A stretch of 64,000 nucleotides of DNA from an uncultured Candidatus Saccharibacteria bacterium (GTDB lineage Bacteria; Patescibacteriota; Saccharimonadia; CAILAD01; GCA-016700035), in NCBI GenBank assembly GCA_964535385.1, contig CAZHSY010000005.1, positions 263 to 64,262 on the forward strand, read 5' to 3'. A program made the translations under genes and the position numbers. Under the pieces are notes generated by a model. It saw only the letters and a list, made by a program, of their open reading frames with translations, was not told the origin of the DNA and did no database searches. How positions within the stretch are numbered: position 1 is the stretch's first letter; every line of letters starts with the position of its first letter. Positions 3,240-37,401 of this stretch are shown piece by piece.

Positions 3240-4807
3240 TGAGTGCCCCCAAACGGCGTCTCAATTCCTAGCTCTTTGCAGTACTCCGCAATCTTTTGAT
3301 CTATTGCGATACTGTCTTTGTCCAGCTGTTTAATCTCACGCGTAACTTCCGCCAGATCAATCTCTGGCTCCTCTTCGAAGGTATCGACATAACGTGGGAT
3401 GTTGAGGTTGTAATCATTTTCTTTGATCTCGGCCAGAGTCGCGCGGTGGCTATACTTCTCGATCTCTTCGCGTTTGGTGTAGGTATCGAGGATCTTCGCA
3501 ATGTCTTCTTCGCGGAGCTTGTTTTGATTTTTACCCTTTTCAAAATGCTTGCTAGCATCGATGAAAAGTATATCGTTCGTGCTCTCGCGGCATTTCTTAA
3601 AGACCAAGATACAAGCTGGGATGCTGGTGCCAAAGAAAAGGTTGGCCGGTAGACCAATCACGGCATCTAGGTAGTTCTTCTCACGGATAAGAAACTCGCG
3701 GATATGCCCCTCGGCTGCGCCGCGGAAGAGGACGCCGTGTGGCATGACGGTCGCCATAGTGCCATTGTCATCCAGCTGGTACACCATGTGTTGAATAAAA
3801 GCGTAATCCGCCTTGGTCCTCGGGGCTAGCTTGCCGTACTGCGCGAAGCGATCATCTTGCAAGTGCCCAGCATCAGCCGACCAGTGCGCACTAAAAGGAG
3901 GATTGGCTACGATTGCTTCAAAGTGATGCTCTGTATGCTGCGGGTGCTCGAGCGTATTTTCCTGACGGATATCAAACCTATCGAAGCGCACATCGTGAAG
4001 AATCATATTCATGCGCGCAAGGTTGTATGTGGTCGGGTTCAGCTCCTGTCCGTAGAACGCATCTACATCTTCCACATATCGGGCCACACGTAGCAGTAGC
4101 GAGCCCGAGCCACAGGTCGGATCATACACACTCTTAAGGCGCTTCTTCCCACTCGTAACAAGGCGGGCCAGCACTTCTGATACTTCTTGCGGAGTATAAA
4201 ACTCGCCAGCTTTCTTACCAGCCCCGGCCGCGAACTGACCAATGAGATACTCGTAAGCATCACCGAGTACGTCGATCTTGGCGTCTTCAAGTCGGAAATC
4301 AATCTTATCCAGATGAAGCAATACGCGAGAGAGAAGCTTGGCGCGGTCAGCATTAGTACGTCCAAGGCGTGAAGAGTTTAACTCAATCTCGCTGAAGAGC
4401 TTATCGAAGTCATCTTCGCTATCACGACCCATAGTGCTTTGCTCGATGCTATTAAGATTGCGCTCAAGGTCTTCGATGAGATTTGGTGAATTTGCACCGT
4501 GCTCGGCCACGTAGCTAAAGAGCTCTGTGGGTCTTAAAAAATAGCCCAGACCATCGACAGCCTCCTCTCGGATAGCTTCGATCATCTGCTTATCTTGCTT
4601 TACATTCTCATCGAGATCGACGTATACGCGGCCATCTGGCTTCAGCAACTTGTCGGCGTATGCGTTCATTTGCTCCGAGAGATACTTGTAAAAGATAAAG
4701 CCCAGGATGTAGTCACGGAACTGACCGGCATCCATATTACCGCGCAACTCATTGGCGATGTTCCATAGTTGGGTCTGCAGTATCTTCTTTTGTTCCTCGG
4801 ACATCAC
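3236..4807 (-). CDS. hsdM: Type I R-M N6-adenine DNA methyltransferase subunit HsdM
   Basis: 523 aa. N-terminal HsdM_N helical domain (LWNIANELRGNMDAGQFRDYILGFIFYKYLSE), AdoMet motif DPTCGSGSLL and catalytic NPPF (IVANPPFS). Good RBS AAAGGAGAGG upstream. Confidence 0.92.
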   Translation of the reverse strand: MMSEEQKKILQTQLWNIANELRGNMDAGQFRDYILGFIFYKYLSEQMNAYADKLLKPDGRVYVDLDENVKQDKQMIEAIREEAVDGLGYFLRPTELFSYVAEHGANSPNLIEDLERNLNSIEQSTMGRDSEDDFDKLFSEIELNSSRLGRTNADRAKLLSRVLLHLDKIDFRLEDAKIDVLGDAYEYLIGQFAAGAGKKAGEFYTPQEVSEVLARLVTSGKKRLKSVYDPTCGSGSLLLRVARYVEDVDAFYGQELNPTTYNLARMNMILHDVRFDRFDIRQENTLEHPQHTEHHFEAIVANPPFSAHWSADAGHLQDDRFAQYGKLAPRTKADYAFIQHMVYQLDDNGTMATVMPHGVLFRGAAEGHIREFLIREKNYLDAVIGLPANLFFGTSIPACILVFKKCRESTNDILFIDASKHFEKGKNQNKLREEDIAKILDTYTKREEIEKYSHRATLAEIKENDYNLNIPRYVDTFEEEPEIDLAEVTREIKQLDKDSIAIDQKIAEYCKELGIETPFGGTQ

Positions 4808-30729: not shown

Positions 30730-31358
30730 GGATTGAGGGCTCCGATCAGCTCGTGATAACGCGTTAAGACCGAATCAGCACTAAAGAGATAGCTATTCGT
30801 ACAGACAAAATCAAATTTGGCCTTAGCGATCTTATTCAGGGTGGCTTCCTCGACGCCACCATCCAGGCCAACTTCGAGATTACCATCCAGCTCTCGCACC
30901 TCGGCGACTCGCTTGAGTACACTTGGCTGGAGTTTCTGCCCGGCGAAGCCAGCTGGGTAGGCCATGAGCAGCACAGTTGAGAGCTTCTCAAGATTATCAT
31001 TGACGACACTCAGGTCAGTGCCGGGGTTAATAGCAATGCCAGCCCGGATACCACCAGCTGTAATCTTAGCGATCGCCTCGCTCACACCCTGCTCAGCCTC
31101 AGCCTGCACAATCACCGTGTAGGGCCGCAAGCGAATCGCCTGAGAGATATACTCCAGGGGCCGCTGCACCATTAAATGAATATCGACCTTCAAACTATCT
31201 GGCGGATCAATCTCCTGGGGCTGAATTGTACGATTATCGACAAATCTGCCGTCAATCACATCGAGCTGGAAGCGGCCGGTCAGCTGTCGAACTTGGGCTA
31301 CCTTCCGTCGGTACTCGCCAGCAGTCGTTTCTAAAATAGCTGGTACTATCTTGGTCAT
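30726..31358 (-). CDS. rpe: Ribulose-phosphate 3-epimerase
   Basis: 210 aa. IVPAIL...DVIDGRFVDN...HLMV are the RPE motifs. 4-nt overlap with tktA. Confidence 0.88.
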   Translation of the reverse strand: MTKIVPAILETTAGEYRRKVAQVRQLTGRFQLDVIDGRFVDNRTIQPQEIDPPDSLKVDIHLMVQRPLEYISQAIRLRPYTVIVQAEAEQGVSEAIAKITAGGIRAGIAINPGTDLSVVNDNLEKLSTVLLMAYPAGFAGQKLQPSVLKRVAEVRELDGNLEVGLDGGVEEATLNKIAKAKFDFVCTNSYLFSADSVLTRYHELIGALNP

Positions 31359-31819
31359 TAACCCTCCTCTAGTCGAGCGATTTGCTCAATCCGCCGCTTG
31401 TGTCGCGCTTCACCCGAGAAAGGCGTGCTTAAGAAGCGACGCGTGATTTTGATGAGGTCGGCCTCTGATTCAAACCGAGCTGGTAAAGCTAGGATATTGG
31501 CGTCATTATCTTGGCGGGTTTCTTCGGCCACTACCTCGTCCCAGACAACGGCTGCGCGAATGCCGTCAATCTTATTAGCCGCTATCGCCATGCCCTCCCC
31601 CGAGCCGCAGACCAGTACACCGAGGCTACCGGAGTCTGTGACGACTTTAATTGCGGTCTGTCTGGCGTGAGGAGTGAAGTCGTCACTCGGATCAAGCCGG
31701 TCTGGCCCAAGATCCACAATCCTGAATTCACCCTCCAGTTCATTCACGATTTTCCTCTTAGCTGTCAGCCCGGCGTGATCGGCTGCAATATAGACAGTGT
31801 GTGGTTTGAAGTCTGCCAT
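31358..31819 (-). CDS. rpiB: Ribose-5-phosphate isomerase B (RpiB/LacAB family)
   Basis: 153 aa. VYIAADHAGL...VLVCGSGEGMAIAANK. Confidence 0.88.
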   Translation of the reverse strand: MADFKPHTVYIAADHAGLTAKRKIVNELEGEFRIVDLGPDRLDPSDDFTPHARQTAIKVVTDSGSLGVLVCGSGEGMAIAANKIDGIRAAVVWDEVVAEETRQDNDANILALPARFESEADLIKITRRFLSTPFSGEARHKRRIEQIARLEEG

Positions 31820-31860
31820 GCCTGTATCTAGTATATAGGAGTTGGCAGTTAGGGGCTAGA

Positions 31861-32325
31861 TTAGCCCACGCCTCGCCACCGAAAACACTGCTGAGATTTC
31901 GGTGAACCATGGAGTTTGAGCAAAGCTTGATAGGTTCCAAAATTGCGAAGGCTAAGGCGCTGATCGATCTGCTTACGCATGTGCGCGTTGAGCCGCCGAA
32001 GATATGGCCAAAAATCAACGCCCAGGTAGCTTATGCCACGACGAGTACGATCAATGTGATCAAGTCGTGGATTAATCGTCAGCTTGAGCTCAGCCTGCAA
32101 GAAATAACTAGCTAATCTGCGCGTGGGATCAAGGGCTTGACCACGAGTGTGAAAACTCAACCAATCATCACCGTAGCGCATATAGGCCGCTGGTTTGAGC
32201 TGATGCACCATAAAACGATCGAACTCATGCAAGTAAATATTGACGAATATTTGGCTGGTTAAGCTACCAATCGGAATAGCCATCGACTGTTTGGCTTTTG
32301 ATACTATCCGGCTTTCGCGCCTCAC
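31861..32325 (-). pseudogene. Reverse transcriptase, C-terminal fragment (motifs 4-7 only) with a diversity-generating-retroelement (DGR) type signature
   Basis: 154-aa ORF with a GTG start. It contains AIPIGSLTSQIFVNIYLHEFDRF (DGR RTs carry IGxxxSQ where group II intron RTs carry SP) and YMRYGDDWLSF (the YxDD catalytic box). Fingers motifs 1-3 are absent. All three upstream frames are closed by stops within 270 nt. Confidence 0.6.
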
Positions 32326-32600
32326 GCATGAGGTGGAAATATCATTTCTTTCAGCACTCTTGTAATAGCACTCATATCAAAAACGTGGGGTGAAGGGGTT
32401 CTAAACGGATAGACATTTCCAAGAGAAACTGCGTGGAATGCGTACACAGTCCACGTTCACCAAGGAAACTTGCTTTATAGCCTATCAATCGTCGTGCATT
32501 TGGGGCACCGTGCGATTGACCGTTGCAATCGTAGGGCTACGTACCCCAATCGTTGGTTGTAAAAGGATCTAAAGAAAAATGAAGGAGCAAAGACTAAGGC

Positions 32601-33140
32601 CTACCCCACCACCAGCCGTGCCTGGTAGTCATCCTCGACAAACGACCCGCCCAAGTTCGGCTCGCCACCGAAGTACACGTAGGAATCCGGAACCTCGGAA
32701 TAGCCATCGACTGCTTGAGGCTCCAAATCAAAATGACGAATGTAGGTACGGTCGAAAGCACCACTATCAGACAGTTCGTCGCCGCCAGCTCGCAATGCAT
32801 ACCAATAGGTCACTGCATCGAGTGCCGACGGTACCCGGAGATGAAGCTCTGGCTGATCAGTTTGCAGGCGAGCCAAGGTTTGTCGCTGCTCACGGGCCGT
32901 TTGATAGCCCAAGACTCGAGACTGGCATGAAGGTATTAGGCTAAAACGGACGGGTATACCTGTAGCCGATCCTGATAATTCCTGGCCACTGTAGTGCCCG
33001 GGCTTATACAGCTCCTCATAGATACGCGTGGGGTATGGTTGGGTCAGCCCAAAGTTCTCCGCCAGACTGACCACGGCCTCTGGGCTGGTCTCGACTTCGG
33101 GAGTTGCCACGACCCGGAAGCTCGCACCATCCGATAGCAT
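32601..33140 (-). CDS. Hypothetical acidic protein, 179 aa, immediately upstream of the RT fragment
   Basis: Intact ORF. The C-terminal tail YFGGEPNLGGSFVEDDYQARLVVG loosely resembles the end of C-type-lectin-fold DGR variable regions (GGSW...GFRxV). Confidence 0.4.
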   Translation of the reverse strand: MLSDGASFRVVATPEVETSPEAVVSLAENFGLTQPYPTRIYEELYKPGHYSGQELSGSATGIPVRFSLIPSCQSRVLGYQTAREQRQTLARLQTDQPELHLRVPSALDAVTYWYALRAGGDELSDSGAFDRTYIRHFDLEPQAVDGYSEVPDSYVYFGGEPNLGGSFVEDDYQARLVVG

Positions 33141-33204
33141 AGTTTTCGCAACATATTCATAGACGCCTCGGGTCAGCCATTCCTGATGCTTTTGTTCGTA
33201 AAAT

Positions 33205-33250
33205 GTCGCTAGCCAAGGCCTGGCCTGACATGAAAAACCAATACCCGACT
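33205..33250. repeat. Partial copy of the dispersed repeat (5' module aggcctggcctgacatgaaaaaccaatacccg)
   Basis: Same module as 34391-34425. Flanks gap on the downstream side. Confidence 0.5.
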
Positions 33251-34268
33251 ACTTCTTGAGTTTTCTGCCGATCAGGGACACCAACTCAACCAGCCGGTTT
33301 GAGTACCCCCACTCGTTGTCGTACCAGGCAACGACTTTCACCATGTTACCACCGACGACATTGGTAAGTTTGGTGTCGACAACCCCGCTGTGGGGATCAC
33401 CAATGAAGTCACTCGAGACGAGTTCTTCCTCGGTGTAGGTTAAGACACCACGGAAACGCTCTTGGCGTGAAGCTTTTTTAATGACCGCGTTAACTTCTTC
33501 GATTGTAGTGTTTTTCTTGGTCAAAAACGTAAAATCAGACATCGAAACAACCGGGGTCGGGACTCGTACCGACAGTCCCTGGAAAACGCCCTCAAGAGCC
33601 GGCAAGGCTTTAGCAGCTGCGAGCGTCGCACCCGTACTGGTCGGCACAATATTCTCAGCGGCATTACGACCTTCACGCAGATCTTTGGCTGGAGCATCCT
33701 GCAAGACCTGGCTGGCAGTATAACTATGGATGGTCGTCATCATAGCCTTCTCGATACCAAACTCACGCTCGATAATGGCTGCAACCGGCGTAATGTTATT
33801 GGTCGTACAACTAGCATTTGAGAAGACATTAGTCTTAGCCACATCGATGTCTTGCTCATTCACACTTATGACGTTGGTCGACACACTCGTATCGTCGCCC
33901 TTGGCCGGAGCTGAGATCACGACCTTTTTGGCGCCGGCCTTAATGTGGAGACTGGCATCCTCCCCCTTTACAAAGCGACCAGTGGACTCAATGACAACAT
34001 CGATATTCATGTGCTTCCATGGAAGGAGCGCCGGATCCTTCTCGGCGGTAACGGCAATCTTAATGCCATCGACTATAATGTGCTTCTCGTCATATTCGAC
34101 TTTCTTATGATACAGGCCGTAATTACTATCGTGCTTAAGTAGATGAGCCAGGGTCTTGGTGTCGGTTAGGTCATTAATAGCAATTATTTTGGTGTCAGGA
34201 CGGGCAAAGGCAATCTTAAAAGCATTGCGGCCAATGCGGCCAAACCCGTTAATAGCGACGCGAGTCAT
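33249..34268 (-). CDS. gap: Glyceraldehyde-3-phosphate dehydrogenase (type I)
   Basis: 339 aa. N-terminus VAINGFGRIGRNAF, catalytic ASCTTN, and C-terminus WYDNEWGYSNR. Confidence 0.95.
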   Translation of the reverse strand: MTRVAINGFGRIGRNAFKIAFARPDTKIIAINDLTDTKTLAHLLKHDSNYGLYHKKVEYDEKHIIVDGIKIAVTAEKDPALLPWKHMNIDVVIESTGRFVKGEDASLHIKAGAKKVVISAPAKGDDTSVSTNVISVNEQDIDVAKTNVFSNASCTTNNITPVAAIIEREFGIEKAMMTTIHSYTASQVLQDAPAKDLREGRNAAENIVPTSTGATLAAAKALPALEGVFQGLSVRVPTPVVSMSDFTFLTKKNTTIEEVNAVIKKASRQERFRGVLTYTEEELVSSDFIGDPHSGVVDTKLTNVVGGNMVKVVAWYDNEWGYSNRLVELVSLIGRKLKK

Positions 34269-34560: not shown

Positions 34561-34913
34561 GACGGGTGGCTCTCTTTACCCCTCATATCACTATGCGGCT
34601 GACAGACCCCATCTTTACAATCCTCGCCTTGCATAAAAGCTCGTAGTATCGCCTCTTCCTGAACGCCACATAGTGCCTGGTGAGTTTGCGTATTCACAAA
34701 GGCCGGCACACCAGCATAACCACCGCAAGCTTCACCGATGATGTCGCTGTATTGAGCCATGATTTTCTCATTTTCAGGGTTCTGCCAGACTTCAAGCTTC
34801 GTAATCTCTACCTCGAGCTCGTCTTCTAGCTGCTGAATGATCGGTCGCATACTAACGCAATGCGGGCAGGTCTCACCATAGAACTCAATAATATGTTCAA
34901 GCTTCTTCTTCAT
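34557..34913 (-). CDS. Thioredoxin/glutaredoxin-fold protein (CPHC active site)
   Basis: Start placed at the internal Met (MKKKLEHIIEFYGETCPHCVSM). Last gene of the DsbA-VKOR operon. Confidence 0.65.
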   Translation of the reverse strand: MKKKLEHIIEFYGETCPHCVSMRPIIQQLEDELEVEITKLEVWQNPENEKIMAQYSDIIGEACGGYAGVPAFVNTQTHQALCGVQEEAILRAFMQGEDCKDGVCQPHSDMRGKESHPS

Positions 34914-36729: not shown

Positions 36730-37401
36730 ATGTCTGTGATTGTCACGATTGACGGAGGCGCCGGCACCGGCACCTCTAGCTTGGCGGCTGGCCTAGCTGA
36801 AAAACTCGGCTCCCCAGCCCTCAACAGCGGTCACCTCTACCGAGGCCTGACACTGTTGGCTCTGGATGAACTCCGCACTGCTGAGGCATTCCCTGGCCAT
36901 ACCGAGCGCATCATTGACCTCGCCCAGAGCATCAACTTTGGCTTCAAGGGTGGTTCGGTCATCGAGATCAACGGCCTGGGCGTCGAAGAGTCAGCTCTGC
37001 GATCGGTCAGCGAAGCTGTGCCGCATCTGGCTCACATCCCTGAGGTTCGCTTGGCTCTGAGGATTTGGCAGCACCGCTTCGCAGAAGATCATGAGTGCCT
37101 GGTGGCAGAGGGGCGCGACCTCGGAACGGTCGTCTTCCCAGATGCCACACGTAAGATCTTCCTGGTCTGCGACGATGAGGAACGCGCACGGCGTCGTTCC
37201 AATCAGGCCGGGCGACTCATCACTGTCGGGGAACTGCTCGAACGTGACCGCCTGGACAGCGAGCGCGATGACTCACCAATGCGACACGGTGGCGATGCCA
37301 TCATCTTCGACACCACCAAGACCAGCGTCCCAGCCCTGGTTAAGAACGTCATCAATTCCCTGCGAGGAGTCCCCGCTTTCGAACGGCTCTTCGCCGAGTA
37401 G
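36730..37401 (+). CDS. cmk: Cytidylate kinase
   Basis: IVTIDGGAGTGTSSLAAGLAEKLG...LNSGHLYR P-loop/NMP-binding. 223 aa. Confidence 0.88.
   Translation: MSVIVTIDGGAGTGTSSLAAGLAEKLGSPALNSGHLYRGLTLLALDELRTAEAFPGHTERIIDLAQSINFGFKGGSVIEINGLGVEESALRSVSEAVPHLAHIPEVRLALRIWQHRFAEDHECLVAEGRDLGTVVFPDATRKIFLVCDDEERARRRSNQAGRLITVGELLERDRLDSERDDSPMRHGGDAIIFDTTKTSVPALVKNVINSLRGVPAFERLFAE

Follow-up and report, generated by a model that had tools for sequence, protein, structure and literature searches.

In the 64-kb stretch of Candidatus Saccharibacteria DNA analyzed here (contig CAZHSY010000005.1; hereafter, the window), the segment 31861-33248, located on the minus strand between gap and a run of pentose-phosphate genes, is very probably an inactivated chromosomal diversity-generating retroelement (DGR) that was wrecked by two deletions. 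Three pieces of the cassette can be recognized in it: the 3' part of a target (variable protein) gene with its terminal variable region (VR), a short stub of the template repeat (TR), and the C-terminal half of a reverse transcriptase (RT). A decayed DGR at this place had been suggested in an earlier note made from the sequence alone, and the affiliation of the RT, the family of the target gene, and the TR stub all speak for it. In the minus-strand order, gap is followed by an open reading frame (ORF) of 179 amino acids (aa) at 33140-32601, here called ORF2, a closed stretch of 275 nucleotides (nt), a 154-aa ORF at 32325-31861, and rpiB (Table 1). The closed stretch had been described correctly, as stops are present in all three minus-strand frames at 32326-32600.

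Table 1. Features of the window and of relatives' loci (labeled L001 and so on); tract lengths come from short reads and are unreliable
Feature	Locus	Position	Strand	Basis or remark
gap (GAPDH), upstream flank	window	33249..34268	minus	ORF list; Pfam Gp_dh_N/Gp_dh_C on the identical L009 gene
DGR target (variable protein) gene, 3' remnant (last ~203 codons)	window	32604..33212	minus	homology to family
VR, last ~114 nt of target gene	window	32604..32717	minus	aligns in register with VRs of L052, L003, L005
VR-to-TR spacer, non-coding, all frames stopped	window	32294..32603	minus	spacing as in relatives
TR stub, first 23 nt of TR, CAAACAGTCGATGGCTATTCCGA	window	32271..32293	minus	repeat of VR start
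C-terminal half of DGR RT	window	31864..32277	minus	RT profiles, homologues, 8ub7 match
rpiB, downstream flank	window	31358..31819	minus	Pfam LacAB_rpiB on the identical L009 gene
bAvd gene / overlapping RT start	L001	1268-1663 / 1584		
bAvd gene / overlapping RT start	L052	4206-4559 / 4516		
bAvd gene / overlapping RT start	L005	6993-7382 / 7309		
bAvd gene / overlapping RT start	L066	2685-3074 / 3001		
Microsatellite in RT gene, (AGAC)19	L005	7833-7908		out of frame
Microsatellite in RT gene, (AGAC)13+13	L062	6228-6336		out of frame
Microsatellite in RT gene, (AGAC)18 + degenerate units	L063	2003-2100		out of frame
Microsatellite in RT gene, (CAGT) of at least 14 units	L049	9236-9295		at contig end, frame not determinable
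Microsatellite in RT gene, (AGAC)24, giving a (DRQT)8 insert	L066 (same contig as L065)	3525-3620		in frame

The template repeat stub and the break point

A repeat search of the segment yielded one direct repeat, in which positions 32271-32293 and 32695-32717 agree at 22 of 23 positions. The earlier note, having looked for a TR/VR pair by eye, overlooked it. The repeat is unique in the window, and no match was obtained in shuffled sequences (0/100). The VR begins with the upstream copy (32695-32717), whose register agrees with that of the 5' border of TR and VR in L052 and L005; the stub is likewise in register with the 5' end of the L052 TR. The distance from the start of the VR to the start of the stub is 424 nt, and the VR-to-TR distances in L001, L005, L052, L054, L062, L063, and L066 are 414-447 nt. 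The sole mismatch is an A in the stub versus a G in the VR, that is, it has the polarity expected of a TR and its VR. The VR ends in the GC-rich run GGCTGGTGGTGGGG before the stop codon; the spacer that follows shows no DNA similarity to the VR-to-TR spacers of the relatives.

Directly after the 23 nt of the stub, the sequence runs on as RT motif 4. At this junction, motif 4 has Ala in place of the otherwise invariant Gly of G[ILM]PIG, and the GCT codon of this Ala is stub sequence. In the L003 RT the corresponding sequence is GGCATTCCGATTGG, and that at the end of the stub is GGCTATTCCGA; the last seven nt of the stub, ATTCCGA (32271-32277), are at the same time the start of the retained RT sequence. 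Most likely, this 7-nt microhomology is the deletion junction. The direct fusion of the TR stub to motif 4 indicates a deletion rather than a split RT.

The latter explanation, a non-canonical split RT, was the other proposal of the earlier note. In a functional split DGR, the RT would consist of two parts, or else the N-terminal half, Avd, and the TR would be encoded elsewhere and act in trans on the VR. Indeed, the RT genes of relatives are often represented by two ORFs broken exactly here (L001, L005, L062, L063), the VR retains its GC-rich 3' end, and the search covered the 64 kb of the window. However, in these relatives the halves are adjacent, parted by a microsatellite or by the loss of 4 nt, whereas here the N-terminal half is absent and the fused stub marks a deletion. 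Moreover, the window contains neither Avd nor a TR, and the VR is identical between assemblies, in contrast to the 10-16 VR differences between samples of an active relative described below. Thus, a functional split DGR is very unlikely.

All parts of the cassette that are missing from the segment are also missing from the rest of the window. An N-terminal half of the RT was found in the 64 kb neither by six-frame translation nor by tblastn with six RT N-terminal halves at E-values up to 50. Window-wide tblastn with three Avd relatives produced noise only, the best match (E 0.05) being outside the locus. A blastn search with word size 7 and an adenine-tolerant sliding comparison, both with the 130-nt VR region and on both strands, recovered the VR itself and the 23-nt stub, and no full TR in the 64 kb. 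No second target gene is present in the window. Accordingly, in place of a TR/VR pair with differences located at adenines, we observe a stub with one A-to-G difference, and in place of a complete RT, a fragment that lacks fingers motifs 1-3.

The same structure is observed in a second assembly. Over 6.4 kb, the contig L009 from an independent Logan assembly of the run SRR10761721 is 99.98% identical to the window. Both junctions and the VR are unchanged in it, and the only site that differs, window position 34809, lies outside the element. An identical 140-aa product is encoded on four contigs. The identity of L009 makes both an assembly artefact and current diversification less likely; the latter, at the level of assemblies, would show as VR differences between the window and L009, and there are none. 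Short-read assemblies are indeed prone to break at DGR repeats and microsatellites, as exemplified by the L049 contig, which ends inside a (CAGT)n tract, and an assembly or sequencing error could in this way hide an intact RT and TR. Still, besides the agreement of the assemblies, no upstream frame shows similarity to RT N-termini, and the 7-nt sequence shared at the junction is far shorter than assembler k-mers. Correction of a frameshift does not restore a full RT either, as nothing suitable is found in 31800-33300 or in the rest of the window. Therefore, we consider an artefact extremely unlikely.

A scenario that accounts for these observations starts from an ancestral cassette arranged as in the relatives, which would have comprised a target gene whose C-terminal VR belongs to a C-type-lectin fold, a spacer of ~310 nt, a TR of ~115 nt, an oppositely oriented bAvd gene, and a ~320-aa RT. 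The first deletion would have joined TR position ~23 to the codon preceding RT motif 4, probably via ATTCCGA, with the loss of ~90 nt of the TR, avd, and RT residues 1 to ~175. The second one, presumably in this order, would have removed the 5' part of the target gene, together with whatever separated it from gap, back to the gap stop codon; the loss would amount to at least ~100 codons, or to ~480 codons if the ancestor was of the long form described below. Because no template, Avd, or RT fingers are left, mutagenic retrohoming would be impossible, and the VR would be frozen at its last sequence.

Affiliation of the RT fragment and of the target gene

The 154-aa ORF (31861-32325 including the stop codon, GTG start, minus strand) carries, as originally noticed, IGSLTSQ (motif 4) at 32251-32271 and YMRYGDDW (motif 5) at 32161-32184, followed by motifs 6-7 and the thumb. 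That it begins at motif 4 and lacks motifs 1-3 agrees with the profile matches, which start at motif 4 only (positions 177-274 of 353 in the NCBIfam group II RT profile). In Pfam, NCBIfam, and PADLOC, libraries that contain no DGR RT model, the ORF has generic RT matches, all of them well below the family cut-offs. Thus, PADLOC RT models match at E 1e-10 to 5e-13; TIGR04416 (group II RT) scores 41.5 bits versus the cut-off of 300, and the partial matches to Drt2 and retron St85 (NCBIfam/PADLOC) score 37.8 versus 390 and 22.9 versus 235, respectively.

The nearest homologues of the fragment are found in canonical DGR cassettes of Patescibacteria/Saccharibacteria, ordered target-VR, TR, bAvd, RT. 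A word-indexed protein search returned only two non-self homologues, P0002 (L001) and P0003 (L002), both 53% identical, and the contigs of both are DGR cassettes in which bAvd (in L002, Pfam PF22296) adjoins the RT. The C-terminal halves of the RTs from L001, L002, and L003 are 52-54% identical to the fragment, which aligns to residues 175-313 of the 324-aa L003 RT. Among solved structures, the best match of the fragment is 8ub7, a 328-aa RT (E 1.9e-9), followed by group-II-like and retron-type RTs at 1.6e-5 or weaker; the intact L003 RT matches 8ub7 at E 3.8e-34, again ahead of group II and retron-type RTs. The aligned chain of 8ub7 reads GIPIGSLTSQ...YMDD, and by its sequence, its length, and the cryo-electron microscopy preprint on bRT-Avd (10.1101/2023.10.23.563531) it is taken to be the Bordetella bRT. 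Because the homologues reside in cassettes with bAvd and adenine-specific TR/VR pairs and the best structural match is 8ub7, we assign the fragment, on these sequence comparisons, to the DGR RT clade.

A different source of the fragment could be suggested by the top profile matches, which are to group II intron RT in NCBIfam and to RT-Cas1 or UG17 in PADLOC, that is, in libraries without a DGR model. The fragment would then derive from a group II intron, a retron, an Abi/UG defence RT, or RT-Cas1. All these scores are far below the family cut-offs, motif 4 has the form IGxxxSQ, every close homologue lies inside a DGR cassette, and the window contains no intron RNA; an Rfam scan of the window detected one tRNA and no other RNA family. 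As for a defence RT, the matches are partial and below cut-offs, and the neighbors are housekeeping genes. Thus, no non-DGR class scores best either among solved structures or among the nearest neighbors, and the probability of a non-DGR origin is negligible.

The second residual gene, ORF2 (ATG at 33140, stop at 32601-32603), ends in ...GGSFVEDDYQARLVVG, which confirms the reported tail; the likeness of this tail to the VR of a C-lectin fold is supported at the level of the family. The frame of ORF2 is open from 33248, immediately after the gap stop, and homology to relatives begins ~36 nt past that stop, which shows that ORF2 is itself 5'-truncated. It has no family match in Pfam, NCBIfam, or PADLOC. 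Its best match is a 697-aa protein of L052, 53% identical over its last 203 residues. A profile search retrieved at least 146 family members; those with taxonomic names are from Saccharibacteria, Saccharimonadales, or Patescibacteria, and none has a Pfam domain. The proteins come in two sizes, ~300 aa and 655-731 aa, and the two forms have only the C-terminal module of ~180 residues in common. An AlphaFold2 model of a family member (P0005, a relative and not ORF2 itself; predicted local distance difference test score 89.5) matches C-type-lectin folds, TvpA, and Mtd. The conserved module corresponds to P0005 residues ~128-304, and ATG 33140 is located at the family position of the module start; helices equivalent to P0005 68-130 are absent from the ATG-started product. 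These data support the membership of ORF2 in a bona fide DGR target family, with the VR predicted to lie inside a C-type-lectin fold.

Canonical cassettes are found in several relatives. An example is provided by L001, which contains a target gene with a 111-nt VR (714-824), a TR (1155-1265), bAvd on the opposite strand, and the RT. In L003, L005, L045, L052, L054, L062, L063, and L066, the last ~110 nt of the family member are repeated downstream or upstream beside Avd and the RT. The TR/VR mismatches occur at TR adenines in 18-21 of 19-23 cases across these target-family loci. In the repeats of L001, L003, and L005 all mismatches are at TR adenines, and the few non-adenine differences are confined to the 10-nt flanks that were added for the comparison. 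bAvd is present in L001, L002, L003, L005, L045, L049, L050, L052, L054, L062, L063, and L066. Finally, L052 (1641-3734), L054 (1294-3387), and L055 (2567-4660) represent three samples of one population with the same 698-codon target gene. The differences between these 2,094-nt genes, found at 10-16 sites, are confined to the VR, where all of them coincide with TR adenines. Comparison of the samples gives direct evidence that DGR diversification is active in the target family.

Several other features of the relatives can be described. In all intact relatives, bAvd is located between the TR and the RT, on the strand opposite to the target gene, the TR, and the RT, with ~45-80 nt of overlap between its 5' end and the RT start. 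In L002 (474-953), an internal deletion in the RT joins the first ~38 residues to ...YLHEFDRF just past motif 4, adjacent to an intact bAvd; this RT may represent a further case of decay in the clade, by a different route, or else the 1.4-kb contig may be misassembled. In two loci, L006 (6001-6873) and L007 (3739-4611), the genes rpe-tktN-tktC are followed by fba, a target-family gene of full length (290 aa), and pfkB. The target-family gene has no TR, Avd, or RT nearby and hence is an orphan target; the pentose-phosphate neighborhood resembles that of the window, with a different position of the gene. In L051, two target-family paralogues are arranged in tandem (82-585 and 589-1509), with no RT or Avd detected within 4.9 kb.

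Residual ORFs, gene neighborhood, and the break site in relatives

Some points weigh against the reading of the segment as a dead DGR. The microhomology is deduced from a relative with 52% identity and not from the true ancestor. A literature search for the accession 8ub7 returned nothing, and its identification as bRT depends on its sequence, its length, and the preprint. The invariance of the VR is observed in two or three assemblies, which possibly do not represent independent populations. An intact DGR with a matching TR could in principle act on the VR from outside the 64 kb examined. Finally, neither residual ORF is interrupted by a stop, and 30 of the 34 columns conserved in relatives are kept in the RT half, a number of deviations inside the range of 0-5 obtained in leave-one-out controls on live relatives of the DGR clade. 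The last observation implies that the deletions are recent or that the pieces have been tolerated or retained. We still consider inactivation by deletions, possibly recent ones, to be the best explanation.

If the pieces were retained, they could have been domesticated, ORF2 as a complete binding domain of fixed specificity with the C-type-lectin fold and/or the RT half in a non-catalytic role, co-transcribed with gap and the pentose-phosphate genes. In line with this, ATG 33140 falls at the start of the only module common to the ~300-aa and 655-731-aa forms, both ORFs are intact, at conserved columns the RT half deviates no more than the live relatives do, full-length orphan targets persist beside pentose-phosphate genes in L006 and L007, and the structure is fixed in two assemblies. 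However, by sequence inspection neither the 179-aa nor the 154-aa ORF has a Shine-Dalgarno-like sequence before its start codon. Likewise, no promoter-like site exists inside 31861-33248, the sole one on the minus strand being upstream of gap, and the ATG-started product of ORF2 is without the helices mentioned above. To our knowledge, no activity has been ascribed to an RT palm and thumb without fingers. Domestication is thus unlikely, and it is a refinement of the decay reading rather than an alternative to it. Probably, the two ORFs are neither expressed nor functional.

The borders of the segment coincide closely with those of the flanking genes. The gap stop codon (33249-33251) directly abuts the truncated target gene, and rpiB starts 41 nt past the stop of the RT fragment, opening the run rpiB-rpe-tktN-tktC-pfkB-pfkB, in which tkt is split into two genes. 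These assignments follow from the Pfam domains Ribul_P_3_epim and Transketolase in the identical genes of L009 and PfkB in the next two genes. The interval between gap and rpiB in the distant relative L024 measures 385 nt, in weak agreement with insertion of a DGR between these genes in the lineage of the window. A contig scan with RpiB identified nearest relatives with 47-48% identity, and DGR parts were present at the locus in 0 of 34 loci.

Two further observations concern the surrounding DNA. At 32584-32607 (minus strand), a weak terminator-like hairpin with a T-run after it overlaps the ORF2 stop codon and the GC-rich terminus of the VR. This hairpin might terminate transcription of gap-ORF2, or it might be what is left of the stem-loop known downstream of DGR VRs. 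The cytidylate kinase gene (36730-37401, plus strand) is on the strand opposite to its neighbors and has ~60% G+C versus ~50% in the surrounding genes, and the intergenic DNA just upstream of it has 37-45% G+C.

The RT genes of some relatives contain, precisely between ...SY and G[IL]PIGNLTSQ, a tetranucleotide microsatellite (Table 1). In L066, where the tract is in frame, the RT is intact and the cassette is complete, with an adenine-biased TR/VR pair. There is no tract in L003, L052, and L054, and their RTs are intact. In L001 (2103-2126), the interval between ...SY and PIGNLTSQ, around AGCAAGCAAGG, has 23 nt instead of 27, and this 4-nt shortfall splits the RT into ORFs of 185 aa and 131 aa at the same site as the microsatellites. 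A search of 1.84 billion representatives with the RT fragment gave 3,447 matches. The 150 closest ones (P0126-P0274) include many short ORFs of 110-250 aa that start at motif 4 or close to it, e.g., MPIGNLTSQ...; these could reflect widespread splitting of the RT gene at this place or merely fragments at contig ends, the two being indistinguishable. An in-frame tetrapeptide repeat was absent from all 26 top-match representatives inspected. Viral contigs scanned with an RT profile yielded no contig besides one known from the other searches.

The RT break in the window falls within a few bases of the microsatellite site. Hypothetically, the microsatellite resembles a contingency-locus switch on the RT. 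If so, the position of the break may be no coincidence: Saccharibacteria DGRs might be turned on and off via slipped-strand phase variation of the RT gene, and the window would represent an irreversible end state, with a deletion from the TR to the microsatellite boundary. This scenario is possible but rather doubtful. In a full-text literature search, no paper was found that connects DGRs to phase variation mediated by repeats. If phase variation is confirmed, it would add a new layer of control over targeted hypermutation, and we see the microsatellite in relatives as the lead most worth following.

Comparison with known systems

On the whole, the segment is a dead element of an ordinary kind, in which the break point can be read unusually well. 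DGRs are common in Patescibacteria, and hence a dead copy changes little. It provides, at base resolution, a case of DGR loss in a streamlined genome, where the deletions appear to be trimmed exactly to the borders of the essential neighbors. In addition, a large unannotated Saccharibacteria family can now be assigned as DGR targets with a predicted C-type-lectin fold.

The prototype of the system is the DGR of Bordetella phage BPP-1 (mtd-VR, avd, TR, brt). It is complete, whereas here the TR is reduced to 23 nt, and Avd and the RT fingers are absent. The BPP-1 DGR occupies a phage tail-fibre locus; the one considered here is chromosomal and lies inside a sugar-metabolism operon. The gene order in BPP-1 is mtd-avd-TR-brt, all co-oriented, and in the relatives of the window avd is on the opposite strand between the TR and the RT. 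The DGR variable protein TvpA of Treponema denticola (PDB 2y3c), matched by the structural model of the target family, has 13% sequence identity. TvpA is a surface lipoprotein; in contrast, the target-family sequences have no N-terminal signal peptide obvious by eye. Group II intron RTs and maturases share palm motifs 4-7 with the fragment, which gives rise to the weak profile matches, whereas the fragment has SQ in motif 4 and is accompanied by no intron RNA and no maturase or endonuclease domain.

Chromosomal DGRs have reportedly been described in the Candidate Phyla Radiation (CPR), or Patescibacteria, and in DPANN archaea. The cassettes considered here are similar to them in the host lineage, the compact chromosomal organization, and the C-type-lectin-type targets; the differences are that the copy in the window is dead and that its target family, with the ~300-aa and 655-731-aa forms, has no Pfam match. 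Incomplete and degenerate DGRs, orphan DGR RTs, and components without a working TR/VR pair are also said to occur in large surveys. A precedent for archaeal and viral DGRs is available (PMC4372165). Compared with the surveyed degenerate DGRs, the path of decay can here be read at base resolution, from the fusion of the TR stub to RT motif 4 and from the target gene cut at the gap stop codon.

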